From Lachnospiraceae bacterium (GTDB taxonomy: Bacteria; Bacillota; Clostridia; Lachnospirales; Lachnospiraceae): a DNA stretch of 64,000 nucleotides. The stretch spans positions 970 through 64,969 of the forward strand of contig JAFVDW010000009.1 in NCBI GenBank assembly GCA_017478245.1, in the 5' to 3' direction. Made by a program: the position numbers and the translations under genes. Positions 17,533 through 38,165 of this stretch are shown here, one piece after another (the stretch's first letter is position 1; each line of letters begins with the position of its first letter). The notes beneath the pieces are model-generated. The model made no database searches. It saw only the letters and a program-made list of their open reading frames with translations, and was not told where the DNA came from.

Positions 17533-17538
17533 ACTATC

Positions 17539-19189: not shown

Positions 19190-19192
19190 AGG

Positions 19193-19516: not shown

Positions 19517-19519
19517 ATG

Positions 19520-19987: not shown

Positions 19988-19989
19988 AT

Positions 19990-20622: not shown

Positions 20623-20626
20623 TATT

Positions 20627-20842: not shown

Positions 20843-20896
20843 TAATTTCCACCTCGTACGCATCGTTTGAAACAAATTGCCTTATTCGTACAATTT

Positions 20897-20925
20897 ATTA
20901 TAACACAAAAATGCCGTTATTTCAA
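20897..20925 (-). promoter_or_regulatory. sigma-A promoter of the cargo operon
   Basis: TTGAAA-N17-TATAAT, TG extension. Confidence 0.72.
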
Positions 20926-21061
20926 GTCTCGGATGCAAAAAAGACACCCGACCGAAGCCGAATGCCATAATCTTCCTGTATTCCGTTATGTCTGTATATC
21001 CGTACCGTCTTAGTGATATCAATGGGACGGCGGGGATTGCTCCCCGCCGCTCTGTTGTGCT

Positions 21062-21439: not shown

Positions 21440-21519
21440 AAGTAGTGTCCTCCAAAAATATTTTGCATTTTGATTTCACTACAATTCAGTATCATCCCGG
21501 CTTGTCTGTAACAATGCCA

Positions 21520-21548
21520 AAGGGCACTTCCTTATGTGAAGTGCCCTT
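21520..21548. terminator. REP-like hairpin B, likely the terminator of the two-component operon
   Basis: AAGGGCACTTC-CTTATGT-GAAGTGCCCTT perfect 11-bp stem. Confidence 0.7.
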
Positions 21549-21605
21549 CCGGAGCGTTTTTTCACTGGTTTATATTGCAAAACAGATAGGTTTTTTACTT
21601 TCATC

Positions 21606-22901: not shown

Positions 22902-23576
22902 TTATATCTCCTGTAAAGTATATCCCTGATTGCGGATTGCTTTAATCTGCACATTTGCATCCAGACTGGTCAGCTTCTTGCGCAGATAGGACACATAGAC
23001 CCACACAACGTTGACCTCGGTCTCACTGTCCAATCCCCACACCTTTTCCATAAAGCGCTCTGTGGAAATCACCTGCCCCGGATTGCTCATCAGCATCTCC
23101 AACATCTGGAATTCCTTGTTGGCAAGGCGCATATTGCCCTTGTCCGTAGACAACTCAAAGGTACCTCTTTCCAATGTGATATTGCCAAAGCGCAATGTAT
23201 TATCCGGGGCAGAGGCGGTCTGCCTGCGGGTCATGGCACGAATTCTGGCAAACAGCTCTTTCATGGCAAAGGGCTTACCCAGATAATCATCTGCCCCACT
23301 ATCCTAGCCAAGCACCCTGTCATCTACACCGGTCTTGGCTGTCAGGATCAACACCGGCACAGAATTGCCCTGTTCTCTAAGCCTTTTCAGCACCGATATA
23401 CCGTCTAACCTGGGCATCATCACATCCAGAATCACACCATCATATTCCTGCAGCTCCAGATAGTCCAATGCCTCCTGTCCATCGTAGACTGCATCCACCG
23501 AGTAATTATTATGCTTTAAGAGCGTTACCAACGCATCTGATAATTCCTTTTCATCCTCTGCCAATAATAAACGCAT
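22902..23576 (-). pseudogene. OmpR family response regulator with an in-frame TAG at 23304-23306
   Basis: MRLLLAEDE...LDVMMP...LTAK...RVLG*DSGADDYLGKPFAMKEL...RNQGY: both ORF-track pieces are in one frame, and the stop replaces the usual Leu of 'GLDSGADDY'. Confidence 0.88.
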
Positions 23577-23830
23577 ACCGCTCTCCCTCTTAATCAAAAT
23601 GACTGTTTTCTTTCATTATGAATCAAATTTCATGAATATGTCAATAGCACTTGCCAACTCAAACTGCTCAGATCAGCTATGTGGAATATTTTTTAATGCA
23701 CAGAAACACAAAATATACTATAATAATTTTATAGTCAAATACCCCGCGGCAGGCTACAGGGCATACCAAAGCTTGTACTTAGTTTGTTCGCATTGCTTAC
23801 GGGAATAAAAATATGCAAGGAGACCTATTT

Positions 23831-24715
23831 ATGAAAATTTTAAAGTATGGTAAGGCTATCTGTTATTCGGGCTATCGGGAGGGACAGAGTCCCAAGACAG
23901 CAATCCCCTCCAAGGAGCAGATCGCAGAGGATCTGGAGATTTTGGTGAAGGATGGTTATCAATACATCCGTATGTACGATCCCAACGACCACGCCAGAAG
24001 AGTACTGGAGACCATTCGCGAGAAACAGCTTCCGATCAAATGTCTAATAGGTGTAGATTCTGATGCGGAGGTAAACAATCCGGGCTGTCCCTGGATTGAT
24101 CACAATATCCCCGAAGAGGTACTTGCCCAGAATAAGGTGCGCAATGACGGTGAAGTGGAAAAACTGATTGAGATGGCAAAGGAGTTTGACGAGGAAATCA
24201 TTGCGGTATCCATCGGCAATGAGAACACACCTTCCTGGGGTGCCCATATGGTTCCGGTAGAGCGCCTAATTCGTCACGTCAAGAGACTGCGGGAAGCCTT
24301 GGACAAGCCCATCACCTTCTGTGAAGGCGCTTTAGACTGGCCTGCCATCGTAGAATTGGGGAATCTGCTTGACTTTATCAGTGTTCACAGCTATCCTTAT
24401 CACTATGGCAGCGAATTAGCCGACGCAGTTGCTGTCAACAAGAAAAATCTGGCAGATGTGCAAGCATTGTTCCCGGATAAACAGGTTATTTTTACGGAGC
24501 TGGGATGGAGCACCAATGATGATTTTTCAGAAGAGCCCAAACGCTCCTCGCGAGAAAATCAGAAAACATACTTTGACGAACTGCTTCCCTGGTTGGAGGA
24601 GGAGCAGATCATTGCTTTCTTATTTGAAGCCTTCGATGAACCCTGGAAAGGCGATTCCCCCGATAAATCCGAGTGTAACTGGGGACTGTATGATGTACAT
24701 CGTCAAAAAAAATAG
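23831..24715 (+). CDS. GH17-like beta-1,3-glucanase/transglucosylase, no signal peptide
   Basis: ICYSGYR, AVSIGNE (acid/base), FTELGWST (nucleophile), FEAFDEPWK, ECNWGLY. Confidence 0.8.
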   Translation: MKILKYGKAICYSGYREGQSPKTAIPSKEQIAEDLEILVKDGYQYIRMYDPNDHARRVLETIREKQLPIKCLIGVDSDAEVNNPGCPWIDHNIPEEVLAQNKVRNDGEVEKLIEMAKEFDEEIIAVSIGNENTPSWGAHMVPVERLIRHVKRLREALDKPITFCEGALDWPAIVELGNLLDFISVHSYPYHYGSELADAVAVNKKNLADVQALFPDKQVIFTELGWSTNDDFSEEPKRSSRENQKTYFDELLPWLEEEQIIAFLFEAFDEPWKGDSPDKSECNWGLYDVHRQKK

Positions 24716-24720
24716 ATACA

Positions 24721-24759
24721 AACTGGCTAATTCAGATACCAAATCTGAATTAGCCAGTT
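24721..24759. terminator. Hairpin between convergent GH17 and GH55-like genes
   Basis: Perfect 17-bp stem AACTGGCTAATTCAGAT/ATCTGAATTAGCCAGTT. Confidence 0.8.
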
Positions 24760-24774
24760 CCATTTTTCCTTCAT

Positions 24775-27753
24775 TTATCTGCTACTGCTGCTGGAGGGTA
24801 TCCTGTAAACATGTTCCCTTCCCATAAGATAAGCATCCTCCCCGTTGGACACGATGGAATACGCATCTCTAGGCACAGGGCGTCTCTCCACAAGCGCTCC
24901 ATCCCGGAATCCATACAGACAGTCATCCACTGCCCAGATGATACCCTCTGCATCCCTCATGACGCCATACTGTCCCTTGTTGCCTACTTTCTGTCCATGA
25001 GCAAAATTGCCTCCCTCGGTCACCTCGTAACAATAAACACTCCTTAAGGCATCGTCTGTAATCAGAAATTCTTCCCCCTCTACCGCTGCATCTAAGCGCA
25101 GCGTCCGTGCCAAATCAATGGTTGCCTGCAGGGCAGTCTTTCCGTCCGGTGCCATATAGTACGCCTCGACCTTCTGCACTGCCTGCACCTGAAACACCCC
25201 CGGATAATCCATCTGTGCAGGGCGGAAAATCACTTCCGGTCTGCACGCCGATGCAGATATGGCAGATAACTCCACCATGGTATCGTAGGGATTCTCCAGC
25301 GATATCGCATACACCTTCTCGCTTCTCTTATAAAACCATGAGAAGAAAGGATGGAAATTGCGAAAATCATGGGACTGAAAGGGCTGTCCGGGAACCGTCT
25401 TCTTCAGCTCCGAATAATCTGCTGCCACCAACAGATTCCCCGCCGTATCCACCGCCAATGCGGAGGGCATAAAGTGACAGTCAAAGAATGGCAATACAAT
25501 ATCTTGCTCTTTCACATACTGATAAATCCGCTTCTGGGATTTGTCGCACCAGTAAAGGTTACCCTTACTGTCAAATGCTGCTCCCTGCGCAAAATCAAAA
25601 CCGGATGCTAATACCTCATAGCCTTCTATATATTCCGGTTTTTTCGCAGAGACACAGCCACCTCCTATGGTCAGCTTAGCGTATTCCGGCGACTTGGCAT
25701 AGAAGCCACTGGTAGCATCCTCTGCTGTCACCGTAAACAAATAGTGCATCTGCGCCTTATTCTGCACGTTCAGGAAGGTTATATCTCTGCTGTTCCACAC
25801 ACGAATACCTGTTTCATAGCTGCGATCCACCGCTATCACACGGAACAGAAAATAATTAGCAAACGTAATATGCTCGCAGGAAATCAATTCCATGGGCAGA
25901 CAATTTAGTCCTTCCGCCTTCTCTTCTTCCGTCTGTATAGCATAAAACACCCAGTTTGCCACATTTACAAGCTTCATCTCACTGCGCACATGATGCTCCA
26001 GAGAGATGGCATACATACGTCCTTTTGTACGGGTATTGGTAATAGTGATTCCCGTCTCCGCGTAGGGGGAAGCACTCCACACATCCTTGAACACGCCACC
26101 GCCGCCATCGGTAATCCACAGACTGGCATACTGAAAATCCCAGATACGATCCGGGTCATAATCTGCGGTACGGCTGGGATTATACAGGTATCCATAAGCA
26201 TTTCTGCCATCACGAAGCATATTGCCATGCCCCCCCAGGAACTTCACATCGTTCATGTAAGAGGTCTCCCCAGCCATCCATTTCACGCCTACCGCTCGCG
26301 GATTCTTACCGGCGGTCTCAATGCCGATACCATTGATGCAGACAAAACCACCTTTTGCCGTCTCCACCACTGCCTTGGGGGTGCCGAATCCAAAGAATGC
26401 CGGCGTGTCATCCGTAAGCGCGATCTGAGTAGTGATGGGACTAAAGCCATACAGGCTCACACCCTCCGGTAGCACAATCGTATCGGATACCCGATAGATA
26501 CCCTGGGGAAAATACAACGCTTTCTGTTCTCCTGTGATGCGCATCTTCTCTGACACATCCAAGAATGCCTGCTTCAGTGCCATGGTATCGTCTGTCTCGC
26601 CGTCACCCACTGCACCGTATGCCTTCACAGACACCCACTGACTCATAGGCAATAGCGCCGGAATGTCACTTGCTGCCATCTCTCCCGGTCTGTCAAGCTC
26701 CCGCACAGACAAAATCTCCTGCATAGAAGCGTCCTGTTCCTCACTGTACACATACCCTCTGGTGTACTCCTCCACCTCATAATAAGCTTCCTCTCTGCGC
26801 ACATACTCGTCCACATCCGCGCGATGTATGAGTGTAGGCACATTGGCACAGCGAAGCCTTTTGATATTGGTCTGCTGAATCACATTGTCCGATTGATAAC
26901 TTGTGATTGCAGCGTCGGTGATATTCTCAAAAACACAATCCTCCAGATACAGCTTCTCCCAACTGCCTGTCAAATAGATATCAAAAGCATGCTTTGTATT
27001 GGCAATCCGCAGCCGAAAGGCTGTAAAGCCTGTGGTGGCACTTAAGACAGCCGCTTCCTTTTGTCCATCAAACACACAGTCCAACAGTGCAAAGGGCCAA
27101 CCCGGAGAACACATCCTACAGACAATACCATATTGTCCACCTTCAAAGGTCAAATCCTCCATCTCATTGCCCACATCAAAGATGCCTGCCAATCCATCCC
27201 CCAACTCAAAATGACAATGACTGATAAAACCATGCTGCGCAAAATGCGCCCGAATACAAATAGCTCCCGGATTGTTATTTTCTATGCGAAAATCAATGTT
27301 ACTGATGGCATCATAAAAAGTACCCGCATTGGCATCCATGGGCTCATCCGCATCCATATTCCGATCTCCAATGAACCAGAACAGATACTTTGCCCCAGGA
27401 TAGCCATCCATGTACAGATTTCGAATCTCATCCCCCCTGATTGTATTACGGTCAATTCTCCGCTCAAAGCCTTTGGTACCCGCAGGCAGCACAAATACCG
27501 GTCTTGTTGCACCGTATCCAATCAGACGCACAGAAGGCGGAATCAGCACAGTATTCTTCAGACGATACTCTCCCTCCGGAATGTAGAGAATTCCATATTT
27601 CTGCTCCTCCACAAGGTGTTTCAAAGCATCCTGCAGCACCTTGCTCACATCCTCTGCTGCATTCTTTAATTCCGGGAACTCCTCCTCTGTGAAGAAAATT
27701 CCCATTTCATCCTGAAATCGATCCTGATAGACCGATGTTTTGCCATGCCACAT
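24775..27753 (-). CDS. GH55-like double beta-helix glycoside hydrolase fused to an SMP-30/gluconolactonase-like beta-propeller
   Basis: Two Pectate_lyase_3-type repeats (LYIPEGEYRL; VKAYGAVGDGETDDT..LYFPQGIYRV); SLEHH...IQTE matches the remembered GH55 catalytic-region pattern; C-terminal GAAFDSKGNLYWCD propeller blades. Confidence 0.7.
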   Translation of the reverse strand: MWHGKTSVYQDRFQDEMGIFFTEEEFPELKNAAEDVSKVLQDALKHLVEEQKYGILYIPEGEYRLKNTVLIPPSVRLIGYGATRPVFVLPAGTKGFERRIDRNTIRGDEIRNLYMDGYPGAKYLFWFIGDRNMDADEPMDANAGTFYDAISNIDFRIENNNPGAICIRAHFAQHGFISHCHFELGDGLAGIFDVGNEMEDLTFEGGQYGIVCRMCSPGWPFALLDCVFDGQKEAAVLSATTGFTAFRLRIANTKHAFDIYLTGSWEKLYLEDCVFENITDAAITSYQSDNVIQQTNIKRLRCANVPTLIHRADVDEYVRREEAYYEVEEYTRGYVYSEEQDASMQEILSVRELDRPGEMAASDIPALLPMSQWVSVKAYGAVGDGETDDTMALKQAFLDVSEKMRITGEQKALYFPQGIYRVSDTIVLPEGVSLYGFSPITTQIALTDDTPAFFGFGTPKAVVETAKGGFVCINGIGIETAGKNPRAVGVKWMAGETSYMNDVKFLGGHGNMLRDGRNAYGYLYNPSRTADYDPDRIWDFQYASLWITDGGGGVFKDVWSASPYAETGITITNTRTKGRMYAISLEHHVRSEMKLVNVANWVFYAIQTEEEKAEGLNCLPMELISCEHITFANYFLFRVIAVDRSYETGIRVWNSRDITFLNVQNKAQMHYLFTVTAEDATSGFYAKSPEYAKLTIGGGCVSAKKPEYIEGYEVLASGFDFAQGAAFDSKGNLYWCDKSQKRIYQYVKEQDIVLPFFDCHFMPSALAVDTAGNLLVAADYSELKKTVPGQPFQSHDFRNFHPFFSWFYKRSEKVYAISLENPYDTMVELSAISASACRPEVIFRPAQMDYPGVFQVQAVQKVEAYYMAPDGKTALQATIDLARTLRLDAAVEGEEFLITDDALRSVYCYEVTEGGNFAHGQKVGNKGQYGVMRDAEGIIWAVDDCLYGFRDGALVERRPVPRDAYSIVSNGEDAYLMGREHVYRIPSSSSSR

Positions 27754-27806
27754 AACCTCGCTCCACTCCTTTTACCAGTTCTATTATCAGTTTCATAAAC
27801 ACCTTA

Positions 27807-29807
27807 TTAAAAGTCCACTGAGGGCTGTAGTACATTATGTATAATCTCCAACAGCGTTTGGGACAGATATGGCTTGATTAAATAATCCTTTGTGCCCAAC
27901 TCTGCCGCTTTTTTCACAATATCAATTTCTTTCTCAGATGTGGCAAAAATAATCGGGGTATTCCCATAATCCTGGATGGCTTTTATCACACGATAGCCAT
28001 CCATACCTGTAGCGTCCATATCCACCAGTACCAAATCAATGTCCTGCTCTAAAAGAATGTGCTTACAAGCCTCCACGGTCTTAGCCTTGTGCACCACATA
28101 ATGGGACTGAGTGGCAATAATTTCTTCTGCTGTATTCAAATCCTCGTCATTGTCGTCGACCAGCAATATGTTCTTTTGCTCTGAACGGAATTGCCGCAAC
28201 TGATACTCCTGGTCCTCATCAATCATCTGAATCATAATATCCGCAATCCTTGGATCGAACTGCTTACCCATACCCGCCAATATCTCACTGCGCACTGCAT
28301 TTTGCGGCAATGCACTGCGGTAGCTTCGGTTGGAGGTCATGGCATCATAGCTGTCCGCAACGCAGACAATCCGGGCTGCAAGCGGAATATTCTCCCCTGT
28401 CAATCCATCCGGATAGCCCTTTCCATCATAGCGTTCATGATGCCATCTGGCTACACTTGCCACATCAAAGGTATTAGATACATTTTTCAAAATGTAATAT
28501 CCCGACACTGTGTGCAGCTTAATATTTTCATACTCATCTGCCGTAAGCTTTCCATCTTTATTGATGATAAAATCGGGCACACGAATTTTCCCCACATCGT
28601 GTAGTAAGCCCGCATAGTAAATTTCCCGCTGCTCTTCCTCGCTCATTCCCATTCTTCTGGCAATCTCTCTGGCATAGTCTGCTACTCTCATGGAATGACC
28701 TTTTGTATATCGATCCTTTGCCTCCACCGCACTGCTCAAGGCATTGATCACCTGGAAATAGAACTGCTCCATCTCCTCCTGCATCCTGCGCACTTCGGTG
28801 GTCTTTTCATCCACTTCCTCCACCAAAGTCTGGGCATAATAGTACGAAACAGTCACGTCGTTCAACACAAAGACTTGTCCATGGGGAAGGGCGGAATGAT
28901 GCACTTCCTGCCCACTGATCGTGTATACTTTATTCTTATAAAATTTATATTTTCCGGCTCCCGCATAATGAACTACATCTGCTACCGCCTCATACGCTTC
29001 ATTTGTCATAAGCTGCGGATAAATGTCTTTCGCAATACGATTGGCATAGAGTAACTGATCGTTCTCTCCTAGTATAACCACGCCAGTACCAATCTCATCC
29101 AGCACCTGATCCTTTGCCACGCTCAAAGTATCCACTAAATTATAACGAATGGTTATTCGCATCAGGAAAATAACAGATACACAGTTGAAAAGTGCCGTGA
29201 TATCATATCCCCTTGTAACACCTGTCAAAAACGCCGTAAAACCTACCATCTGCATCACTATGACTGCGAGGAAATAGGGGATTTGTTTACGCCGGATCGT
29301 ATCTGCCGTTTTGCAATAGCCATAAGTACACATTCCCACACCGGCGAGCAGACAAAGAAATAAATAAGCGGAATACAAATAGTATACAGGACCATGCCCC
29401 AACAGAAGATGCGGAAATTGTCCCTCATAGGTAAACCCAATACTACTGTAATATAAAGTGTGATGCTCGCAGGTTCCTACCATAATCAATGTAGCTGTAG
29501 CAATAAAAAACATGACTGCTTTCAACCATTTGGGAAATTTTACCCTCGTCAAATGACCCATGACAAGCATCATGGTATATAACAAATACACCTTTCCCAA
29601 ATATGCAATTTTCACACCTGTAAGGGCTACCTGTTGGGTTTTGGCATCCAATTCAATCAAATAACCATATGCACTGATACCTACAAAAACCGTGTACAGC
29701 AAGATGAGCGCCTGATGTTTCATAGAGATACGCCTATACAGAATCATAACCTGTATGAATACCAGTGCCAGACCTATGATCTGAATACTAAAATATACCG
29801 CATGCAA
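27807..29807 (-). CDS. 7TM sensor - HD-GYP phosphodiesterase - C-terminal receiver
   Basis: About 7 N-terminal TM helices; HSMRV, LLHDVGK, HHERYDGKGYP, VADSYDAM; REC domain LLVDD...LVDM...KP. Confidence 0.9.
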   Translation of the reverse strand: MHAVYFSIQIIGLALVFIQVMILYRRISMKHQALILLYTVFVGISAYGYLIELDAKTQQVALTGVKIAYLGKVYLLYTMMLVMGHLTRVKFPKWLKAVMFFIATATLIMVGTCEHHTLYYSSIGFTYEGQFPHLLLGHGPVYYLYSAYLFLCLLAGVGMCTYGYCKTADTIRRKQIPYFLAVIVMQMVGFTAFLTGVTRGYDITALFNCVSVIFLMRITIRYNLVDTLSVAKDQVLDEIGTGVVILGENDQLLYANRIAKDIYPQLMTNEAYEAVADVVHYAGAGKYKFYKNKVYTISGQEVHHSALPHGQVFVLNDVTVSYYYAQTLVEEVDEKTTEVRRMQEEMEQFYFQVINALSSAVEAKDRYTKGHSMRVADYAREIARRMGMSEEEQREIYYAGLLHDVGKIRVPDFIINKDGKLTADEYENIKLHTVSGYYILKNVSNTFDVASVARWHHERYDGKGYPDGLTGENIPLAARIVCVADSYDAMTSNRSYRSALPQNAVRSEILAGMGKQFDPRIADIMIQMIDEDQEYQLRQFRSEQKNILLVDDNDEDLNTAEEIIATQSHYVVHKAKTVEACKHILLEQDIDLVLVDMDATGMDGYRVIKAIQDYGNTPIIFATSEKEIDIVKKAAELGTKDYLIKPYLSQTLLEIIHNVLQPSVDF

Positions 29808-29840
29808 TTTGAATCAACTCCATCTAAAAACGTTACTTTC

Positions 29841-29869
29841 ATTATATCTTATAACCCCGATGGACACAA
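29841..29869 (-). promoter_or_regulatory. sigma-A promoter of HD-GYP (and probably GH55-like) unit
   Basis: TTGTGT-N17-TATAAT. Confidence 0.55.
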
Positions 29870-29881
29870 TGTTTTCCATGC

Positions 29882-29917
29882 AAAAAGGCGGATACTTTTT
29901 CAAGCATCCACCTTTTT
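29882..29917 (-). terminator. Terminator after first GH16 gene
   Basis: AAAAAGGCGGAT...ATCCACCTTTTT stem with T tails. Confidence 0.65.
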
Positions 29918-29945
29918 AGGGATTGTATAGTTAGACGAAAAACCC

Positions 29946-32900
29946 TTATTTAACTGCCTCCGTAACGATTGCGGTATCTCTTCTTCCGCTCTCATTAAGA
30001 GGTGTGTAACCGAACATATAGGATACAGTGCTGCCCTCTGCCTTTACAGTAAAGGTATAGTAACCTTCCTTATCGCCGGTTCTGTTCATTGCTGCACCTG
30101 CAAGCTGCCACAACTGAGGATTGGTCTTGTCAAAGCCCCAGAATACCAGAGGAGTTGCCTCATTCTCATTTGCGTAGATGTAGAAAGTCAATGTACCATC
30201 AGCATTGCGCTTTACGCCATATTCCCCTTCTACTTCCTCTACCACCTCTGCAACCGGTGCTGTCATAGCAGATACCTTGGTGCTGAAGATCTCGGAATCA
30301 ATTCTTCCGCCTGCGTTTAACGGTGTGTAGCTGAACATATAATTCATTACATCGCTTGCTGCATAGCTCTCTGTAGTAGTGAAGCTAAAGTAGTTGTCTC
30401 CCAGGCTTGCATCCTTTGTCAAAGCAAGACCTGCAAGCTGCCATAACTGAGGATTGGTCTTATTTACACCCCAGTAGAGCATAGGTGCAAAGCTGGTATC
30501 CTCTGCCTTCACATAGAAGGTAATGGTTCCATCATTATTCTGGAATGCTCCAAGCTCATCGTTCACCTGTACTGTGCCAGTGTTACCTGTGCTGCCGGTA
30601 TTATCACTTTCATTGCCACCCTGATTCTGATTCTCATTAGAATCATCCTGCTTCTGATCGTTACCGGTCTGTGTCTCGTTTCCGCCGGTCTGAGTACTTT
30701 CATTTGCCTTCGCATCAGACAGCTTCTGACTGGTAATTGCAGAATCAATTCTACCGCTTCCGCCCAGCGGTGTATAACTAAACAGATAAGAAATCACGTC
30801 ACTTGCTGCATAAGCTGCACCAGTTGTATATGTAAAATAATTCTCCCCATAAGAAGCATCCTTTTTCAGGAATGCACCTGCCATCTTGTAAAGTGCAGGA
30901 TCATCTAAATTAGCTCCGTAGTAAACCATAGGACCAAAAGCGGTATCCTCTGCCTTCACATAGAAGGTAATGGTTCCATCACTGTTCTGATGTACACCGC
31001 TCTCTGCAGTAGGAACAAAGGTATCCTCTACGGGTTCTACCGGGTCAACAGGATCATCTTTGCCGGGTTCTACCGGATCAACAGGATCCTCTGTACCAGG
31101 GTCTACCGGGTCAACAGTCACCTCTTCTGCCCCCTTGGTAACTGTGACTACGCAGGATGCGCTCAAGCTGCTGTTTGCAGTAGAACTAGCTGTGATGAGA
31201 GCAGTGCCTTCACCCACTGCGGTCACCTGACCTGCGCTTACTGTAGCGACTGCTTCGTTAGAAGAAGTCCACTCAACATTTCTCTGTGTTGTATTGCTCG
31301 GTGTATAAACCTTATTCAAGTTAGTGGTCTGACCTACATTCAGTCTTACGGATGCTTTATCCAGTCCTAAACCTGTAATTGCTATCGTCTCGGGTTCCCA
31401 AGTTCCCTCTTCCTTGTAAACTCGCACATAGTCAACTAACATCTCTGCTGATGTGAAGCTGCTGTCAGGTACTACGCCTCCATCGAACCATCCGCCTACT
31501 GCCAGGTTCATGATAATATAGAAATCCTGGTCGAACGGTGCGGTATCAGAGCTGGAACCTAAGGAGTACCACTGACTCTTAGGGATGTACTCGAAGAACT
31601 CACCATCTACATAGAAGGTAATGTTATCTTCCTCCCAAATACAGCTATATACATGATATCCATCATCAAAGGTTGAGCCATCCGGGAAGATATAATCCAG
31701 TCCGGTATATTTGTTGTTCGGCCAAGCTCCACCGTAGTGAAGTGTACCACTGGTGGAATTAGTCACACGACCTCTTGCCTCCATAACATCAATCTCGCCG
31801 GAAGCTGCCCAGGTACCATAGGTATCATCATTGGGAAGCAGCCAAAGTGCGGGCCACAGACCCTTACCTGCGGGAAGCTTTGCACGGAAATCAATACGTC
31901 CATAGGTAAAGGATACCTTATCCTTGGAAATAAGCTTTCCTGAGGAATAATCTGCTGTCACCTTAGTCTGTGCTGCATCAGTACAGGTAAAGGTATAAGG
32001 CTCATATTTTGCAACTAAGTGCAAATCACCATTTGCCACATAAGTATTACTTGCGCTATCAGTATAGTATTCTTTCTCATTGTTTCCCCAACCAAAAGTG
32101 TTAGGGTCGGAGGGGTCAAGGAAATAACCTGTGTTGTAGCTCCAGCTATCCATATCTACGGAATTGCCATCGAACTCATCGTTGTAGTAAAGAACCCAAC
32201 CGTCCAGTGCATTTGCATCACTGCCTGCACCACCTACGGTGATATTTTCAATTACTACGTCCTCAGGACGATATGCGTTGGGAGCACCTACAAACTGATA
32301 CTCAATATAGTTGTTATTTACTGCGCCGCCTGCCTGACCGTTCTCAGGATATCCAATACGAAGCTTGAAGTCCTCGGTTACAGGCTGGAACCAGAGACCA
32401 TATACATAATCATCGAAATAGCCCCACTGATTCTTAGCGGAATAGTTGATGTAACCATTTCCCTGATAGTACCAACCGCTTGCTGCACTGTTGGTGAACT
32501 CTACCCAATCAGAACCATTGTAATACTGGATTACAAAGTTGTCTAATTCCTTGTTGGTAGGAAGGTAATCATCACCGGTTCCTCCCAGGAAAGGAAATAC
32601 TACGCCGCAAGCTCCGGTGGAGGAATCTGCTGTGATGGTAGTGGAACCATTTGCATATACCTGATAGCTGCTTCTTGCAGTATCAGAATAGGTGATGGTA
32701 TAAACGGTGTTGATATTCTCATAGCCCTTCAATGCTACCTTTACATTGATGGAACCGCTATCTTCTACCTTGAACCAATAGCCATACTGCTCAATACCAA
32801 AATTGGTGTCATAAATCCATCCGCTTTCGGGATTGTTGTCGATATTCACATATGCGCTATCTGCCTCATTTACACCTTTTACATATACTACAAGGCTATC

Positions 32901-33482
32901 AGCATCTGTAGGGTAGCTGCCACCATTTGCAATCGCATTGGGGAAAGCAATAAATCCGCTACCGGTACGATTGGCAGAAATTGTTGCACCTGCAACAGGT
33001 GACAATGCTGTTACACTAGCTGCATCTGTGGTATTTAAGATCAAAGTATAATCCAGTGTCACACTGGGATTGGACTTGGAATAGAGCTGTAAGTAAGTTG
33101 TCTCGCTTACCTTAAACCAGTAGCCGTTGAATCCGCTGTCAGACCAATGACCCCAGTTGCTGTTGTAGACAAAACTGTCCACAGAGTCAATGTCAACCCA
33201 CTGTCCGTTTACCTTAACATTCACGGAGAGGTCGTTCACTACTTCGCTCCAGGTATTCGCACCGCCGTTGAAAGTCGGCATCTGGAATCCAAAGCTGGCT
33301 TCATTCATACCGGACGCTGTGAAAGTCGGACCGTCTTTGTAAGCCATAGAAGTGATTGTAGCACTCTGTGTTGTCTCAGCGTTCACAGTGAGAGCAGTAG
33401 TCGGCGCAACCCCCGTTACTGCCAATGCTGCTGCCATCAGTACACTCAGACAAAGTTTCTTCCATTGGAACCTTCTCTTCAT
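29946..33482 (-). CDS. Secreted GH16 endo-beta-1,3-glucanase (GlcA-type N-terminal region, GH16, one Big_2, three ~95-aa repeats)
   Basis: Signal peptide; NWGHWSDSGFNGYWF and QWGYFDDYVYGLWFQP as remembered from B. circulans GlcA; WPALWLLP, SGEIDVME catalytic motif; no SLH. Confidence 0.9.
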   Translation of the reverse strand: MKRRFQWKKLCLSVLMAAALAVTGVAPTTALTVNAETTQSATITSMAYKDGPTFTASGMNEASFGFQMPTFNGGANTWSEVVNDLSVNVKVNGQWVDIDSVDSFVYNSNWGHWSDSGFNGYWFKVSETTYLQLYSKSNPSVTLDYTLILNTTDAASVTALSPVAGATISANRTGSGFIAFPNAIANGGSYPTDADSLVVYVKGVNEADSAYVNIDNNPESGWIYDTNFGIEQYGYWFKVEDSGSINVKVALKGYENINTVYTITYSDTARSSYQVYANGSTTITADSSTGACGVVFPFLGGTGDDYLPTNKELDNFVIQYYNGSDWVEFTNSAASGWYYQGNGYINYSAKNQWGYFDDYVYGLWFQPVTEDFKLRIGYPENGQAGGAVNNNYIEYQFVGAPNAYRPEDVVIENITVGGAGSDANALDGWVLYYNDEFDGNSVDMDSWSYNTGYFLDPSDPNTFGWGNNEKEYYTDSASNTYVANGDLHLVAKYEPYTFTCTDAAQTKVTADYSSGKLISKDKVSFTYGRIDFRAKLPAGKGLWPALWLLPNDDTYGTWAASGEIDVMEARGRVTNSTSGTLHYGGAWPNNKYTGLDYIFPDGSTFDDGYHVYSCIWEEDNITFYVDGEFFEYIPKSQWYSLGSSSDTAPFDQDFYIIMNLAVGGWFDGGVVPDSSFTSAEMLVDYVRVYKEEGTWEPETIAITGLGLDKASVRLNVGQTTNLNKVYTPSNTTQRNVEWTSSNEAVATVSAGQVTAVGEGTALITASSTANSSLSASCVVTVTKGAEEVTVDPVDPGTEDPVDPVEPGKDDPVDPVEPVEDTFVPTAESGVHQNSDGTITFYVKAEDTAFGPMVYYGANLDDPALYKMAGAFLKKDASYGENYFTYTTGAAYAASDVISYLFSYTPLGGSGRIDSAITSQKLSDAKANESTQTGGNETQTGNDQKQDDSNENQNQGGNESDNTGSTGNTGTVQVNDELGAFQNNDGTITFYVKAEDTSFAPMLYWGVNKTNPQLWQLAGLALTKDASLGDNYFSFTTTESYAASDVMNYMFSYTPLNAGGRIDSEIFSTKVSAMTAPVAEVVEEVEGEYGVKRNADGTLTFYIYANENEATPLVFWGFDKTNPQLWQLAGAAMNRTGDKEGYYTFTVKAEGSTVSYMFGYTPLNESGRRDTAIVTEAVK

Positions 33483-33794
33483 TTTTTTCTCCTCCAATAC
33501 ATTATACAGCACATCTTGGTCACATTTCCTAACCCCTTAAAAAATATGACCTGTTTCAAAATGTAACTTGATTTTACGCTATTGCATTTGCGGGAGAAGT
33601 ATTTTTTTTTGGTGTAAAGTTCCTTTTTTTTAGTTGCTTTTTTTCAACTTGTATATTTTTTCTAAAGAATGGCATCCTCGATTGTGCAAAATTATAAATA
33701 AATATAACGGATTTTTCTGTGGTATTCCTTTAATTCGTTAAAGTGTACATAATGCTTCAAGTAGAAAAATTTCATTTTGTATAAACAAACAACC

Positions 33795-33827
33795 CCGGTA
33801 AGTTAGCACGAATATCTAACCTACCGG
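33795..33827 (-). terminator. Terminator after second GH16 gene
   Basis: CCGGTAAGTTAG-N9-CTAACCTACCGG stem followed by T-rich tail on minus strand. Confidence 0.6.
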
Positions 33828-33863
33828 AGCCGTTTTATGTTTTTCTAATCCACATGTTTAGTA

Positions 33864-36800
33864 TTAGTTTGTATTTGCCTGAACTACCTTCATCATCATG
33901 GATGCACACTCAGCGCGTGTTGCATTGCCAATCGGATCCAATCTCATTTCAGACTTAGCAGCTCCTGCCTTGCCTTTTCCGCTCATGACACCCTGGGAAA
34001 CTGCCCAGCTCAAAGCTTCTTTCGCATAATCGCTCACCTTTGCAGAATCGGAGAAGTCATCAATGATTCCATCCGTAATGGTGGTATCATAGTTGTTCAG
34101 CTTTGCATAGCTGTAAAGCATCACTGCAAGATCCTGACGCGTAATATTCTTGCCGACACCAAAGGTGCCTTTACCTGTACCGCTTGCAATCTTATTCTCA
34201 TTTGCCCACTTAACAGCATTGACATACCACTGTCCTGCCTTCACATCCGGAAAGTCCTTTGCTGTTCCGTTTAAAGCAGGGCTGCCGGAAGAATTATACA
34301 AGGTCTGTACGAACTCTTCACGGGTAATATTCCCTTCAGGTCGGAAGTTGGTACCCTTACCTGCCATAATGCCGTTATCGTATACGAACTGTACCGCACT
34401 TACCCACCACTGACCTTCTTTTATATCATCAAATACGTTGACCACGGATTCCTTGGGTTCGGGTTCAGGTTCGGGTTCGGGCTCCGGCTTTTCTGTCAAT
34501 CCCTTCCATGCACTATTCAGTGTTGCCAGTGCGCTATCTACTTCACTCTGGGTTGCTGCTTCTTTTGCAAGTACTTCCTTCGCTGCAGTCAGCGCTGCTT
34601 GTAAAGCTGCTACTGTCTCATCAGTATAGCTTGTTGTATCCAGTTGCTCACAGGTATTAACCGCTGCCTGCAATGCACTTTTATCTACAACCGGCTCCGG
34701 CTTCTCTGTCAAATCATCCTTTGCTTTGTTCAATGCTGCCAGTGCACTATCTACTTCACTTTGAGTTGCTGCTTCTTTTGCAAGCACTTCCTTCGCTGCA
34801 GTCAGTGCTGCTTGTAAGGCTGCTACTGTCTCATCAGTATAGCTTGTTGTATCCAGTTGCTCGCAGGTATTAACCGCTGCCTGCAATGCACTCTTATCTA
34901 CCGTTACCGGTTCAGGGTCTTCCGGTGTGGAAGAAGCCTTCAAGGTCTCATTTACAATGGGGCTGTCTTGTCTGCCGGTGCCGGATACCGGAACATAACC
35001 GTACATATAAGAAATTACATCGCCTTCTTTATAGGTTGCCGTCGTGGTGAAGCTATAATAATTTTCTCCTAACGCAGCATCTGCTTTCAGGTTCTCTCCC
35101 ATGAGCTTGGATAGCGTAGGATTTTCAATATTGCTGCCATAGTAAAGCATGGGACCGGGTGTGGAATCTTGTGCTTTCACATAGAAAGTAAGGGTCTTGT
35201 CCTCATTCCAGGTCATTCCGTATTCCGTGGAAGGCACTACCGGATCGTCCCCGCCGGAGCTATCCTTGGATACGGTTACCGTACAAGTTGCTTTCGCTTT
35301 ACTGTTTGCAGTGGAAGTAACCGTAATCGTCGCAGTTCCTTCACCCACTGCGATAATTTTTCCATCACTTACCGTTGCCACCTTGTCATCGCTGGTTGTC
35401 CACGTTACATCCTTCTGTGTTGTATTCGTGGGAACGTATGCCAATGTTAAGGACTCACTCTCTCCTACCTTCAGCGCAACAGAGGATTTGCTCAATCCTA
35501 ATGCACTAACTGCTACTTCATCATCTGGTGTACTATCCTTGGATACGGTTACCGCACAAGTTGCTTTCACTGTATCGTTCGCGGTAGATATAACCGTGAT
35601 TGTTGCAATTCCTTCACCCACTGCGGTAATCTTTCCGCCGCTTACCGTTGCCACCTTATCATTACTGGTAGTCCAGGTTACATCCTTTTGTGTAGTATTG
35701 GAAGGTGTATAGGAGACTGTCAGTGTCTCATCGCCTCCCACCTTCAGTTCAACAGAAGACTTATTCAATTTCAGTGCGGTAACTGCTACCTCCTGCGGCT
35801 CCTCCGCCTTCGTTACGGTTACCGTACAGGTTGCTTTCGCTTTACTGTTTGCAGTGGAAGTAACCGTAATGGTTGCAGTTCCCTCACCTACTGCAGTAAT
35901 CTTTCCACCGCTTACCGTTGCCACCTTGTCATTACTGGTAGTCCAGGTTACGGTTTTCTGAGTGGTATTGGAAGGGGTAAGCACTTTATTCAAAGTGTAT
36001 GTTTCTCCCACCTGCAAATCAACAGAAGTCTTGTCCAGACCCAATGCCTCAATCGCTACTTCCTCTTCAGGCTCCCAGGTGCCTTCCTTTTTGTACACGC
36101 GCACATAATCTACCAACATCTCAGCCGATGTAAAATCTGACTCCGGCAGGATATCATCATCAAACCAACCGCCCACTGCCAGGTTCATAACAATGTAGAA
36201 ATCCTGATCAAAGGGTGCAGTATCGGAACCGGAATTTGCGGACCACCACTTTGACTTAGGAACAAAGGAATAGAAGTTGCCATCCACATACCATGTGATA
36301 TTGTCTTCCTCCCAGATTGCACTGTATACATGATATCCATCGTCAAAGCCGGAGCCCTCCGGGAACTCATAATCCAAGCCTGTGTGCTTATTGTCCGGCC
36401 AGGTTCCGCCATAGTGGATTGTACCAGTCACAACGCCGGGAGTTCTGCCTCTTGCCTCCATGACATCCAACTCTCCGGAGCATGCCCATGTACCGTAGAC
36501 ATTGTCATTGGGAAGCATCCAGAGTGCAGGCCACAAGCCCTGTCCGGCAGGAAGCTTTGCACGGAAATCAATTCGTCCATAGGTAAATTTCACTTTATCT
36601 TTGGAAATAACTTTGGCAGAGGAGTAACCTGCTGTCACCTGTGTCTGTGCCGCATCTGTACAGGTAAATGTACGAGGCTCATTTTTTGCAATCAAGTGAA
36701 GCGCACCGTCACCCACATAGGAGTTCTCTGCACTGTCGGTATAATACTCCATCTCATTGTTACCCCAGCCTTTCGTACCGGGATCAGAGGGATCAAGGAA

Positions 36801-38165
36801 ATAACCCAGATCATGACTCCAGTAATTGGTATCTAACGCATTACCGTCAAACTCTTCATTGAAGTAAAGCGTCCATCCATCCAACGCGTTGGGATCGCTT
36901 TCCTCCCCGCCTACAATGATGTCACCAACCTCTACATCTACGGGACGGTAAGCATTGGGCGCTCCAACAAAGGAATATTCAACATAATTGGAGCCTACAT
37001 CTCCGCCCTTCTCTCCATTGGAAGGATAACCGATGCGAAGCTTGAAATTCTCCGTTACTGGCTGGAACCATAGACCATATACATAGTCATCGAAATAGCC
37101 CCACTGATTCTTGGAGGAATAATCCACATATCCATCCCCCTGATAATACCAACCACTGGCTGAGCTGTCTGCTAAGTTCACCCAGTTCGTACCATCGTAG
37201 AACTGATATACAAAATTATCCAACTCTGCATTTGTAGGTAGATTATTGGTCTTATCAGTACCGCCAAGCAGCGGAAGCACTACACCGCATGCGCCGGTCT
37301 CAGAGTTCGCAGTAATCGTCGTTCCTTCAAATGCGTATACCTGATAGCTGGAACGCGGCTCTGATGAGTAAGTGATCGTGTATACTCTGCTGACGGTCTC
37401 CTTATCCTTCAATGCCAGTTTGACATTGATAGAACCGGAATCCTTTACCGTAAACCAATATCCATTTTCTTCAATTCCAAAGTTACTATCATAAATCCAA
37501 CCGCTAGCTGCGTTATTATCAATATTGACATATGCGCTGTCGGGATCATCGACACCTTTTACATAAGCCACAAGGTTCGCAGCACCGGTAGGATATGCAA
37601 CACCGTTTGCAATCGCATTGGGGAACGCAATAAAACCGGTTCCGGTACGGCTTGCATTAATCGTATCTCCCTCTTTCGGTGCCAACTCTGTCACACTGGC
37701 TGCATCGGTTTTATTGACAGTCAGTGTATAATCCAACGTCACACTGGGATCTGACTTGGAATACAACTGCAAATAAGTGGTCTCACTCACACGGAACCAA
37801 TAACCATTAGCTCCACCGTCAGACCAGTGACCCCAATTTCGGTTATAAATAAAGCTATCTACGGAGTCAATATCAATCCATTCCCCATCCACTTTTACCT
37901 TTACAGACAAATCCTTGTTGACCTCACTCCAAGTATTCGCCTTGTTATTGAAGAACGGCATACGGAATCCAAAGCTTACTGCGTCCATTGCATTGGCTGC
38001 AAAATTAGGACCATCATCGTAAGCCATAGATGTAATCGTAACGCTCGTCTCCTCAGCATGCGCCGTAAGAGCAGCCGCAGGCAATACATCCGGCGCTATC
38101 AGTGCCAGCGACAATGCCAGTGACATGCCGATACAAAGCTTTTTCCATTTGGACTTTTTCTTCAT
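33864..38165 (-). CDS. Cell-surface GH16 endo-beta-1,3-glucanase (GlcA-type N-term, GH16, three Big_2, one ~95-aa module, two FIVAR, three SLH)
   Basis: Signal peptide; SGELDVME; FDDIKEGQWWVSAV...ITREEF, FPDVKAGQWY...ITRQDL, ATRAECA SLH motifs; PEPEPE linker. Confidence 0.92.
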   Translation of the reverse strand: MKKKSKWKKLCIGMSLALSLALIAPDVLPAAALTAHAEETSVTITSMAYDDGPNFAANAMDAVSFGFRMPFFNNKANTWSEVNKDLSVKVKVDGEWIDIDSVDSFIYNRNWGHWSDGGANGYWFRVSETTYLQLYSKSDPSVTLDYTLTVNKTDAASVTELAPKEGDTINASRTGTGFIAFPNAIANGVAYPTGAANLVAYVKGVDDPDSAYVNIDNNAASGWIYDSNFGIEENGYWFTVKDSGSINVKLALKDKETVSRVYTITYSSEPRSSYQVYAFEGTTITANSETGACGVVLPLLGGTDKTNNLPTNAELDNFVYQFYDGTNWVNLADSSASGWYYQGDGYVDYSSKNQWGYFDDYVYGLWFQPVTENFKLRIGYPSNGEKGGDVGSNYVEYSFVGAPNAYRPVDVEVGDIIVGGEESDPNALDGWTLYFNEEFDGNALDTNYWSHDLGYFLDPSDPGTKGWGNNEMEYYTDSAENSYVGDGALHLIAKNEPRTFTCTDAAQTQVTAGYSSAKVISKDKVKFTYGRIDFRAKLPAGQGLWPALWMLPNDNVYGTWACSGELDVMEARGRTPGVVTGTIHYGGTWPDNKHTGLDYEFPEGSGFDDGYHVYSAIWEEDNITWYVDGNFYSFVPKSKWWSANSGSDTAPFDQDFYIVMNLAVGGWFDDDILPESDFTSAEMLVDYVRVYKKEGTWEPEEEVAIEALGLDKTSVDLQVGETYTLNKVLTPSNTTQKTVTWTTSNDKVATVSGGKITAVGEGTATITVTSTANSKAKATCTVTVTKAEEPQEVAVTALKLNKSSVELKVGGDETLTVSYTPSNTTQKDVTWTTSNDKVATVSGGKITAVGEGIATITVISTANDTVKATCAVTVSKDSTPDDEVAVSALGLSKSSVALKVGESESLTLAYVPTNTTQKDVTWTTSDDKVATVSDGKIIAVGEGTATITVTSTANSKAKATCTVTVSKDSSGGDDPVVPSTEYGMTWNEDKTLTFYVKAQDSTPGPMLYYGSNIENPTLSKLMGENLKADAALGENYYSFTTTATYKEGDVISYMYGYVPVSGTGRQDSPIVNETLKASSTPEDPEPVTVDKSALQAAVNTCEQLDTTSYTDETVAALQAALTAAKEVLAKEAATQSEVDSALAALNKAKDDLTEKPEPVVDKSALQAAVNTCEQLDTTSYTDETVAALQAALTAAKEVLAKEAATQSEVDSALATLNSAWKGLTEKPEPEPEPEPEPKESVVNVFDDIKEGQWWVSAVQFVYDNGIMAGKGTNFRPEGNITREEFVQTLYNSSGSPALNGTAKDFPDVKAGQWYVNAVKWANENKIASGTGKGTFGVGKNITRQDLAVMLYSYAKLNNYDTTITDGIIDDFSDSAKVSDYAKEALSWAVSQGVMSGKGKAGAAKSEMRLDPIGNATRAECASMMMKVVQANTN
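34489..34905 (-). repeat. Intragenic tandem duplication of FIVAR module (213-bp period)
   Basis: Near-identical DNA: TCAGTATAGCTTGTTGTATCCAGTTGCTC at 34621 and 34834; protein VDKSALQAAVNTCEQLDTTSYT... twice. Confidence 0.85.
35265..36055 (-). repeat. Three Big_2 (Ig-like) repeats
   Basis: PSNTTQKxVTWTTSxDKVATVSxGKIxAVGEG three times. Confidence 0.85.

Follow-up and report, generated by a model that had tools for sequence, protein, structure and literature searches.

The usual picture of β-glucan use in Gram-positive gut bacteria is a compact locus that combines GH16 enzymes with an ABC importer and a phosphorylase. Five adjacent genes in the ~2.5-Mb genome of a gut or rumen Lachnospiraceae bacterium raise the question of whether such a system is complete within one locus. 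The initial annotation had described them as a self-contained β-1,3-glucan locus with an embedded c-di-GMP phosphodiesterase. We analyzed these genes within the window, that is, the whole 64,000-nucleotide stretch of DNA. All five ORFs were found where they had been placed and their domains were confirmed, including a 7TM-HD-GYP-REC gene in the middle. The genes and the signals between them are as follows.

23831..24715, plus strand: P0001, GH17-family gene (~294 aa; the ORF opens at 23813)
24720..24760, both strands: bidirectional intrinsic terminator (17-18-bp stem with T-runs) between the convergent P0001 and P0002
24775..27753, minus strand: P0002, GH55-fold double β-helix plus propeller (Pfam, AF2, Foldseek)
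27807..29807, minus strand: P0003, 7TM-HD-GYP-REC protein (Pfam HisKA_7TM, HD_5, Response_reg)
29882..29913, minus strand: terminator-like hairpin and T-run after P0004, then a TATAAT box before P0003 (sequence reading)
29946..33482, minus strand: P0004, GH16 protein, predicted to be secreted (ORF to 33512; likely ATG at 33482; Pfam, structure matches)
33781..33827, minus strand: terminator-like hairpin after P0005; promoter-like TGnTATAAT and RBS ahead of P0004 (sequence reading)
33864..38165, minus strand: P0005, GH16 protein, predicted to be SLH-anchored (Pfam, structure matches)

Judging from these terminator and promoter signals, the five genes would form about four transcription units; the hairpin after P0004 was not reported by a consensus terminator scan. 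P0003 and P0002 are separated by a terminator-free gap of 53 nt and are probably co-transcribed. As the annotation had also observed, no sugar transporter or LacI/AraC regulator lies around the locus within the window. Neither a c-di-GMP riboswitch nor any other Rfam family was detected in the 20-42 kb part of the window. The left flank contains a Tn4451-like element and is variable.

P0004 and P0005 are predicted to be exported GH16 endo-β-1,3-glucanases of the BglH/PglA type, with P0005 anchored to the cell surface by its SLH part and P0004 free and equipped with additional modules of a binding type. PF00722 (GH16) scored 68.5 and 67.1 bits in the pair against a cut-off of 22, and the ExDxxE catalytic motif reads EIDVME in P0004 and ELDVME in P0005. 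The solved structures nearest to P0004 are the laminarinases 3azx, 4dfs, and 2vy0 (E 1e-47 to 1e-44), and P0005 matched laminarinase structures at E 3e-48. The two proteins are 71% identical across the ~780 aa that form their first part. In P0004, a signal peptide is followed by a three-repeat N-terminal region (32223-33380), the GH16 domain (~31398-32219), a Big_2 domain (~31167-31376), and three ~95-aa modules (29949-31027). In P0005, the signal peptide, N-terminal region, and GH16 domain (~36081-36896) are followed by three Big_2 domains, one ~95-aa module (~34911-35249), two FIVAR domains, and SLH (~33867-34433). The signal peptides on both proteins and SLH on one agree with the extracellular endo-cleavage proposed in the annotation.

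The annotation had called both enzymes GlcA-type. The BglH/PglA type fits better, as the N-terminal region of P0004 is 49-52% identical to that of Paenibacillus BglH-type enzymes over 386 aa (PMC4219603). BglH from Bacillus circulans IAM1165 and PglA from Paenibacillus sp. S09 have the same order of parts, namely signal peptide, three-repeat N-terminal glucan-binding region, GH16, Big_2, and a C-terminal binding module; the N-terminal region of PglA binds insoluble β-1,3-glucan, and pachyman and zymosan are bound by this type (PMC4219603). P0004 and P0005 differ from these enzymes in being two tandem paralogues, in having one or three ~95-aa modules in place of CBM56, and, for P0005, in the added FIVAR and SLH parts. 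CBM56 (PF22184) had no match in either protein even at E ≤ 1, and no Pfam model recognized the ~95-aa module, which weakly matched the C-terminal CBM region of the Paenibacillus enzymes (HMM, E ~1e-4). A GH16 orthologue in a genome of the same genus (G185) does carry CBM56. The AF2 model of the N-terminal region consists of three β-sandwiches; a specific CBM fold was not assigned to it, as Foldseek returned generic Ig-chain matches only. The other GH16 genes of the source genome stand alone amid housekeeping genes.

P0001 is predicted to be a cytoplasmic GH17 enzyme. Its start at 23831 is Met7 of the ORF and coincides with the start of the orthologue on the metagenome contig L015 (82% identical). 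No signal peptide was predicted, which places the enzyme in the cytoplasm of a Gram-positive cell. The Pfam GH17 model scored 21.8 bits, under its cut-off of 28.2, while a profile built from 12 homologues matched solved GH17 enzymes, namely 6fcg from Formosa (E 1.6e-31), the transglycosylase 4wtp from a fungus (4.7e-14), and 2cyg (7e-3). GH17 enzymes were recognized by an acid/base Glu after strand 4 (N-E) and a nucleophile Glu after strand 7 (E-x-G-W). The corresponding residues of P0001, E137 (GNENT) and E229 (TELGW), do not vary among the 12 homologues and coincide with the 6fcg pair in the alignment. The Formosa laminarinases, which belong to laminarin PULs of marine Bacteroidota, are the best solved relatives, with the catalytic Glu pair kept in a full-length alignment; P0001 differs from them in its size of ~300 aa, the missing signal peptide, and the Pfam score under the GH17 cut-off. 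PF11790 (Glyco_hydro_cc) scored 21.7 against a cut-off of 21, and assignment to GH128 on this basis was dropped because the strong profile matches were to GH17 structures only.

In P0002, PF12708 matched two stretches (E 5e-30), and an NHL/SGL propeller was also recognized. Its AF2 model (pLDDT 90.4, pTM 0.91) consists of a double β-helix (aa ~20-690) and a six-bladed SGL/NHL-type β-propeller (aa ~705-985). A Foldseek search with this model ranked the GH55 structures 3eqn, 5m5z, and 8jhh on top (E 4e-23 to ~1e-22, TMt 0.68, ~820 columns), followed by propeller lactonases. The two tandem right-handed β-helix domains correspond to the GH55 rib-cage fold. PDB sequence searches found nothing for the N-domain alone or for residues 500-680; only the stretch 400-660 aligned, to MnLam55A. 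In GH55, the general acid is E614 (MnLam55A)/E502 (Sacte), accompanied by the Glu-His pair E591-H592/E480-H481 (PMC10637969). E586-H587 and E609 of P0002 align with the MnLam55A pair and general acid, and across 58 GH55-like homologues neither E586-H587-H588 nor Q607-x-E609 varies. Thus, all the motifs named in the annotation (GH16 ExDxxE twice, GH17 NE/TE, and GH55 EHH/QTE) are present, and those of the GH17 and GH55-like proteins are invariant in their homologues.

Other parts of the GH55 active site are not kept. The acid-orienting Tyr (Y505/Y617) has no counterpart in P0002, where K612 occupies a position that is K, V, A, or R across the family, and the subsite −1 Asp (D449/D557) corresponds to position 549, which varies among N, D, E, and S. 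W538 and W546 align with the W-x-W aromatic block of GH55, with a 6-residue insertion between them. The N-domain proton relay of GH55 consists of Gln, Ser, and Thr/Glu. Its Ser appears to be replaced in this family by an invariant Asn-Glu (N196-E197 in P0002), in an N-domain alignment that lacks significance alone, and the family carries its own invariant VGNEME motif. The label GH55-like is justified by the fold, the catalytic acid, and the Glu-His pair, and not by the remaining subsite −1 residues; because these differ from GH55, activity of P0002 on β-1,3-glucan is something that we infer rather than assign. P0002 has the rib-cage fold of two β-helices in common with PcLam55A, SacteLam55A, and MnLam55A; the GH55 general acid and Glu-His pair have aligned counterparts in it, and two Trp of the aromatic block also align. 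Identity to these secreted enzymes is 12-16%, whereas P0002 is predicted to be cytoplasmic and is fused to a C-terminal propeller, and the subsite −1 Tyr and Asp are not conserved.

No signal peptide or TM segment was predicted in P0002, and among GH55-like homologues, signal peptides occur in Bacteroidota and are absent in Firmicutes. The missing signal peptides of P0001 and P0002 are consistent with the cytoplasmic processing that the annotation had proposed. The fold of the propeller matches SGL lactonases (SMP-30/gluconolactonase), which are defined by a conserved metal-binding catalytic center. In P0002, the propeller is the least conserved part, with a mean column conservation of 0.49 vs 0.63-0.69 and only two invariant residues, and we did not adopt its reading as an active lactonase because of this poor conservation. 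The GH55-fold/propeller family is large: homologues in Bacillota and Bacteroidota number far more than a thousand and frequently lie in PULs, and PULs of many phyla are represented. Distant homologues lie behind sugar ABC importers or SusC/D, in loci that also hold GH18, GH9, GH2-like, and NagB genes, none of which suggests β-1,3-glucan. Our analysis thus brings out two predicted cytoplasmic enzymes, the GH17 enzyme and the GH55-fold/propeller family.

The missing functions were found elsewhere in the genome. Contig C60 carries a locus in which transport is represented by an SBP and two permeases, and regulation by a histidine kinase and an AraC response regulator; the locus also encodes a laminaribiose phosphorylase, a second GH94, and a Peripla_BP_3-GGDEF protein. 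Another partner gene lies on contig C94. In a gpPUL, glycoside hydrolases share one locus with transporter and regulator; the five-gene locus has only the hydrolases, with the transporter and regulator on C60. As importer, regulator, and phosphorylase are on C60, the five-gene locus is one part of a scattered system, and the description as self-contained did not hold. We consider it reasonably probable that the five genes form the enzyme-rich portion of a β-1,3-glucan utilization system (for laminarin, callose, or the glucan of fungal or yeast walls) whose genes occupy no fewer than three sites in the genome. The GH16 enzymes would cut insoluble glucan into oligosaccharides, which the C60 transporter would import. 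Endo-cleavage by the retaining GH17 enzyme and exo-cleavage by the inverting GH55-like enzyme, which possibly also handles β-1,6 branches, would then shorten them to laminaribiose and glucose, with laminaribiose phosphorylase performing the last step.

The C60 locus resembles the GH94 laminaribiose phosphorylase/GH161 clusters of Paenibacillus and Acholeplasma, which pair GH16 outside the cell with an ABC importer and with phosphorolysis in the cytoplasm (PMC6484121), and the mixed-linkage glucan gpPUL of Blautia producta follows the same logic (PMC10318527). Unlike in those clusters, GH16 lies outside the C60 locus here, and both loci include c-di-GMP enzymes. A further addition is the pair of predicted cytoplasmic hydrolases, GH17 and GH55-like, and neither PMC6484121 nor PMC10318527 mentions these in such clusters. 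The Blautia example raises the alternative that the target is a cereal mixed-linkage β-1,3/1,4-glucan, since a laminarinase-type GH16 can prefer this substrate (PMC10318527). The genome also has a second, 802-aa GH94 and several GH3 genes. Nevertheless, the C60 phosphorylase is far nearer to laminaribiose phosphorylase (PDB 6ggy, E 6e-298) than to cellobiose phosphorylase (4e-26). GH17 and GH55 are families specific for β-1,3 linkages. The ligands of the BglH/PglA-type N-terminal region, pachyman and zymosan, are likewise β-1,3-glucans (PMC4219603), and a mixed-linkage target therefore seems highly improbable.

A link between GH17 and the phosphorylase was seen in other gut bacteria. On 21 contigs from gut metagenomes, GH17 comes immediately after an 898-aa homologue of laminaribiose phosphorylase, within a gpPUL of the classical kind. 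The annotated example (L176) has the order permease, GH16, LacI, 1090-aa protein, 898-aa protein, and GH17; the 898-aa protein is 53% identical to the C60 phosphorylase, and its 1090-aa partner is possibly a GH161.

We then examined co-occurrence across genomes. In a sample of 150 genera of Lachnospiraceae, GH55-like genes were present in three (G007, G068, and G106) and GH17 in the first two only (Fisher p 2.7e-4). Among 25 GH55-like-positive Lachnospiraceae genomes, GH17 was found in 15 and BglH-type GH16 in 16, compared with 2/150 each (p ~1e-13), although such statistics overstate independence because the genomes are related by descent. In the genus of the window, each of the three families occurred in 1-2 of up to 80 sampled genomes (GH55-like, 1/36), and G185 held all three, spread over three contigs. 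Neither GH17 nor BglH-type GH16 was located within 10 kb of the GH55-like gene in any of the 25 other Lachnospiraceae genomes, and GH17 had no common partner among its neighbors in 17 genome loci. The HD-GYP/GH55-like/GH17 trio was repeated on L015 only (58, 74, and 82% identity), where the gene upstream of HD-GYP has a C-terminal tail unlike that of P0004. GH16 genes were within six genes of a GH55-like gene in four loci (L030, L037, L054, and L060). The annotation had made co-occurrence in relatives a test of its reading: genome co-occurrence is strong, but there is no conserved locus and the genes are scattered. The cluster brings together, in this lineage, genes that usually lie scattered; it is not an ancient operon. 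Locus-based CAZyme mining would miss such a pathway, whose genes lie apart in the genome and which was detectable mainly through co-occurrence.

This scatter could also mean that the tandem GH16 pair and the trio are independent and came to be neighbors in an accessory region that adjoins a transposon, without co-regulation or a common substrate. The separate terminators and promoters would fit such a juxtaposition, as would the Tn4451-like element with its variable left flanks, the lone position of the other GH16 genes, the dispersal in relatives, and the dissimilar tail upstream of HD-GYP on L015. However, the chance of three independent units falling inside 14.4 kb of the 2.49-Mb genome is ~1e-4, and clustering by chance is unlikely. 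All three families also co-occur strongly at the genome level, and other gut loci connect GH17 with GH16 and laminaribiose phosphorylase. We regard mere juxtaposition as unlikely. Genome co-occurrence, together with the position of GH17 beside laminaribiose phosphorylase in gut Firmicutes, argues that the five genes are functionally linked.

The gene in the middle of the locus encodes, in order, a 7TM sensor, a linker, a predicted HD-GYP phosphodiesterase, and a C-terminal receiver. Pfam identified HisKA_7TM, HD_5 (PF13487, E 6e-36), and Response_reg in P0003; the HD and GYP motifs are intact in the translation, and six TM-like segments were predicted. P0003 shares its HD-GYP catalytic motifs and receiver domain with RpfG (REC-HD-GYP), from which it differs in the C-terminal position of the receiver, the N-terminal 7TM (HisKA_7TM) sensor, and the probable co-transcription with a glycoside-hydrolase-like gene. 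Genes for c-di-GMP turnover occupied 5/54 slots adjoining GH55-like genes, compared with 0/381 non-adjacent slots (p 2.5e-5). A fixed GH55-like/HD-GYP partnership was dropped, because the adjacency was present in 5/31 Lachnospiraceae loci and in almost none of other phyla, and because the 7TM sensor of P0003 had no close orthologue in the 25 GH55-like-positive genomes (≤31% identity). The link is recurrent but facultative.

The recurrent adjacency of c-di-GMP enzymes and GH55-like genes would also suit a role outside β-1,3-glucan feeding. P0002, with its c-di-GMP partner, might process another imported glycan (e.g. GlcNAc/GlcN fungal-wall or N-glycan fragments), or P0002 might trim an endogenous polysaccharide under c-di-GMP control, as the hydrolases BcsZ and PslG do. 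The GH18, GH9, GH2-like, and NagB genes near distant homologues, the poor conservation of the subsite −1 Asp and Tyr together with the family-specific VGNEME motif, and MBOAT and AlgX/DHHW acetylation genes upstream in L001-L003 are in line with this. Conversely, a cytoplasmic site is unlike that of known exopolysaccharide-trimming hydrolases, and the GH55 catalytic acid and Glu-His pair are invariant. P0002 also co-occurs with GH17 and the BglH-type laminarinase in Lachnospiraceae, with GH16 within six genes in the four loci mentioned above. This role for P0002 appears rather improbable.

Under the preferred reading, a scattered β-1,3-glucan system, P0003 and the sugar-sensor diguanylate cyclase on C60 would probably couple glucan availability to the c-di-GMP level, which could in turn act on motility or attachment. 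Of the c-di-GMP coupling proposed in the annotation, the link itself recurs, in the adjacency counts, the C60 GGDEF protein, and GH16-sensor-GGDEF fusion proteins (~24 protein clusters); the step to motility or attachment is speculative. The probable co-transcription of P0003 and P0002, the cyclase with a LacI-type sensor in the phosphorylase locus, and the fusions raise a bolder, more doubtful possibility: in gut and rumen Clostridia, sensing of β-1,3-glucan breakdown products might be wired directly into c-di-GMP, switching the cell between swimming and attachment on contact with fungal, yeast, or algal glucan, with P0002 as the founding member of an uncharacterized, widespread, PUL-associated hydrolase family. 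The breakdown of a dietary or fungal glucan appears to be linked to c-di-GMP time and again; this would matter for the way such bacteria find particles and stay on them. In the fusion proteins of relatives, a cytoplasmic GH16 domain is joined to a sensor cyclase, and one of them has a degenerate GH16 catalytic motif.

All five ORFs proposed in the initial annotation were present in the region 23813-38165, each with family-level evidence, and every motif named there was found. The observations held, and the initial interpretation is partly supported. The region is not a self-contained beta-1,3-glucan locus, as an importer, regulators and a phosphorylase are encoded on another contig, nor is it a conserved one. 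We read it instead as a single module within a beta-1,3-glucan utilisation system that is dispersed over the genome. The genes are as follows.

23813/23831-24715, + strand: P0001, GH17-like protein of ~294 aa; no signal peptide; Pfam GH17 match slightly below cut-off
24775-27753, - strand: P0002, GH55-like protein; two PF12708 stretches and a C-terminal NHL/SGL propeller
27807-29807, - strand: P0003, 7TM-HD-GYP-REC protein (HisKA_7TM, HD_5, Response_reg); HD and GYP motifs intact
29946-33482, - strand: P0004, GH16 protein; signal peptide
33864-38165, - strand: P0005, GH16 protein; signal peptide; C-terminal FIVAR and SLH domains

The transcription signals suggest that the five genes make up about four units. 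Between P0001 and P0002 there is a strong terminator that works in both directions, and terminator-like hairpins followed by -10 boxes were found 3' of both P0005 and P0004. The P0003-P0002 gap is just 53 nt and holds no terminator. To the left of the locus is a mobile element (13936-23264) with a serine recombinase, a Mob_Pre relaxase, a beta-lactamase-family gene, a GyrI-like gene and TnpV; beside the element are a histidine kinase and an ORF of 120 aa that corresponds to an OmpR-type regulator reduced to its DNA-binding half.

The initial annotation named failure of the genes to co-occur in relatives as a refutation; this applies to gene order but not to genome content. In 25 other Lachnospiraceae genomes with a GH55-like gene, neither GH17 nor BglH-type GH16 occurred within 10 kb of that gene. 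In a sample of up to 80 genomes from the genus of the window (36 for GH55-like), all three enzyme families were found only in G185, on three contigs and amid unrelated genes. The sole repeat of the arrangement was a 9-kb metagenome contig (L015) in the order 7TM-HD-GYP-REC (58% identity), GH55-like (74%), convergent GH17 (82%), then GH2. Synteny of the five genes is weak. In a background sample of 150 genera, with one genome per genus, GH55-like genes occurred in G007, G068 and G106, GH17 in G007 and G068, and GH16 with the BglH-type N-terminal domain in G068 and G137 (GH55-like versus GH17, Fisher p 2.7e-4). Among the 25 genomes picked for a GH55-like gene (25/25), GH17 was present in 15 and the BglH-type GH16 in 16, against 2/150 each in the background (p ~1e-13); these co-occurrence p-values are generous, as related genomes are not independent. 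Since carriers in the window's own genus numbered only 1-2 among up to 80 genomes, the pattern is not one of simple descent. Across genomes, the three families go together.

We modelled the GH55-like protein with AF2 from 58 sequences (pLDDT 90.4, pTM 0.91). It was matched best by the three GH55 structures (E from 4e-23 to 3e-18, highest TMt 0.68), and the C-terminal third, the least conserved portion of the family, matched six-bladed lactonase/NHL propellers. Residues were aligned to those of MnLam55A, with roles read from the residue list in PMC10637969.

Conservation of GH55 active-site positions in P0002 (P0002; MnLam55A; role; state in the family)
E586-H587; E591-H592; Glu-His pair; no change in 58 homologues
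E609; E614; general acid; invariant
W538, W546; W552, W554; aromatic block; invariant and 56/58, with a 6-residue insertion between
K612; Y617; orients acid; variable (K/V/A/R)
position 549; D557; subsite -1; variable (N/D/E/S)
N196-E197; GH55 relay Ser; proton relay; invariant Asn-Glu in place of Ser (tentative alignment)

P0002 has the GH55 fold and is probably a hydrolase, which makes it a candidate for full membership of GH55, with putative beta-1,3 specificity. More than 1,000 homologues (~975 aa) share the whole architecture, from Lachnospiraceae, Oscillospirales, Paenibacillus, Halanaerobiales and Bacteroidota, and this GH55-fold/propeller family is widespread in polysaccharide utilisation loci (L039-L095). 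Signal peptides are absent from Firmicutes copies and present in those of Bacteroidota. In Oscillospirales and Paenibacillus, the genes immediately ahead of the distant homologues encode a sugar ABC importer (a DUF3502 solute-binding protein and two permeases) and its AraC-type response regulator, and the homologues of Bacteroidota adjoin SusC/D, frequently in pairs of paralogues that carry signal peptides. The accompanying enzymes (GH9, GH18, GH2-like, NagB) gave no specific pointer to beta-1,3-glucan. Neglectibacter timonensis SN17 has three GH55-like copies, one adjoining a 247-aa GH16. Among other cultured strains, a GH55-like gene is also present in Paenibacillus brevis MSJ-6 and Halanaerobacter jeridensis, and a BglH-type GH16 in Pseudobutyrivibrio sp. 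YE44.

The two GH16 proteins are 71% identical across their first 780 aa, and their closest solved relatives are laminarinases (E ~1e-47). Their ~390-aa N-terminal region (32223-33380 in P0004, 36900-38054 in P0005) had no match in the local Pfam copy; it shares 49-52% identity with its counterpart in numerous Paenibacillus enzymes (~790-880 aa), in which it is followed by GH16, Big_2 and CBM56. A ~95-aa C-terminal module, of which P0004 has three copies and P0005 one, only weakly matches the C-terminal CBM region of these enzymes. The layout is the BglH/PglA architecture, and we prefer "BglH/PglA-type" to the initial label "GlcA-type". Insoluble beta-1,3-glucan is bound in PglA and BglH by the three-repeat N-terminal region as well as by the C-terminal one (PMC4219603). 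An AF2 model of the N-terminal region (pLDDT 91) has three tandem beta-sandwich modules; the search returned no specific structural relative and no closely similar solved CBM, making the region a candidate structurally undescribed beta-1,3-glucan-binding module. The window's genome (G000) has six GH16 genes in total. Two others besides P0004 and P0005 encode secreted-type proteins, each a lone gene amid housekeeping genes: C36:13009-15450 (GH16 with two CBM4_9) and C7:5518-7119 (GH16 with ricin-B).

For the GH17-like protein, a profile of 12 sequences matched the Formosa GH17 laminarinase 6fcg over its full length (E 1.6e-31), versus E 4.7e-14 for a fungal GH17 transglycosylase. Both catalytic Glu residues (GNENT, TELGW) are invariant in the family. 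Across 17 genome loci, GH17 had no neighbour in common. In 21 contigs from gut metagenomes, counted without de-replication, it lies directly downstream of a gene for an 898-aa protein, 53% identical to the phosphorylase on contig C60 of G000, and this adjacency ties GH17 to cytoplasmic laminari-oligosaccharide catabolism. The annotated representative (L176) has the order permease, GH16, LacI, Pfam-less 1090-aa protein, 898-aa protein, GH17. Contig C30 of G000 (5009-5146) holds a stretch of 46 residues that shares 59% identity with the C-terminus of the GH17 protein and contains an in-frame TGA, probably the remnant of a second copy.

Contig C60 itself carries a classical Gram-positive polysaccharide utilisation locus (70189-85999, equal to L113:4190-20000), with a solute-binding protein, two permeases and a second, sensor-type SBP-like protein, as well as a histidine kinase with an AraC-type response regulator. 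Its 912-aa GH94 is a full-length match to laminaribiose phosphorylase 6ggy (E 6e-298), and a second GH94 is also present. A homologue of the 1090-aa protein, at 55% identity, is encoded on contig C94 (12509-15682); the protein may be a GH161-type beta-1,3-oligoglucan phosphorylase; in L176 (3351-6623), it belongs to a cluster of 9 and lies between LacI and the phosphorylase homologue. From the GH17-phosphorylase adjacency and the C60 and C94 homologues, we conclude that genes elsewhere supply functions on which the window locus relies. To the known frame of secreted GH16, ABC importer and laminaribiose phosphorylase (PMC6484121, PMC10318527), these findings add two putative cytoplasmic enzymes and recurrent c-di-GMP wiring; in the literature searched, we found no description of any of these additions.

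Only ~14 c-di-GMP turnover genes were found in G000, giving a ~1% chance that one adjoins a given gene. Across 31 Lachnospiraceae loci, c-di-GMP genes occupied 5/54 slots adjoining the GH55-like gene versus 0/381 other slots (p 2.5e-5), in four different arrangements. The particular 7TM sensor found in P0003 is specific to its lineage. We regard the link as real, though facultative; motility or adhesion would be our guess at its output. No riboswitch is present at the locus. The C60 locus is the site of a second c-di-GMP gene; its Peripla_BP_3-GGDEF protein (a LacI-type-sensor cyclase), encoded on the opposite strand, has an intact GGDEF motif. In relatives, GH16, CBM4_9, a LacI-type sensor (Peripla_BP_3) and GGDEF form a single cytoplasmic protein (~24 protein clusters, Clostridia MAGs). 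Two ORFs downstream of one such fusion (L138:64-3165, metagenome contig R22__coassemble_1998), in which EIDVME is intact, lies a GH17 homologue. The GH16 catalytic motif of another (L132:37-2508) is degenerate, which suggests that it acts as a sensor. In a 62%-identical relative (L001-L003:7301-14211), MBOAT and AlgX/DHHW-type polysaccharide O-acylation genes precede the GH55-like gene, and a gene for a 422-aa HD-GYP protein comes 17 nt after it.
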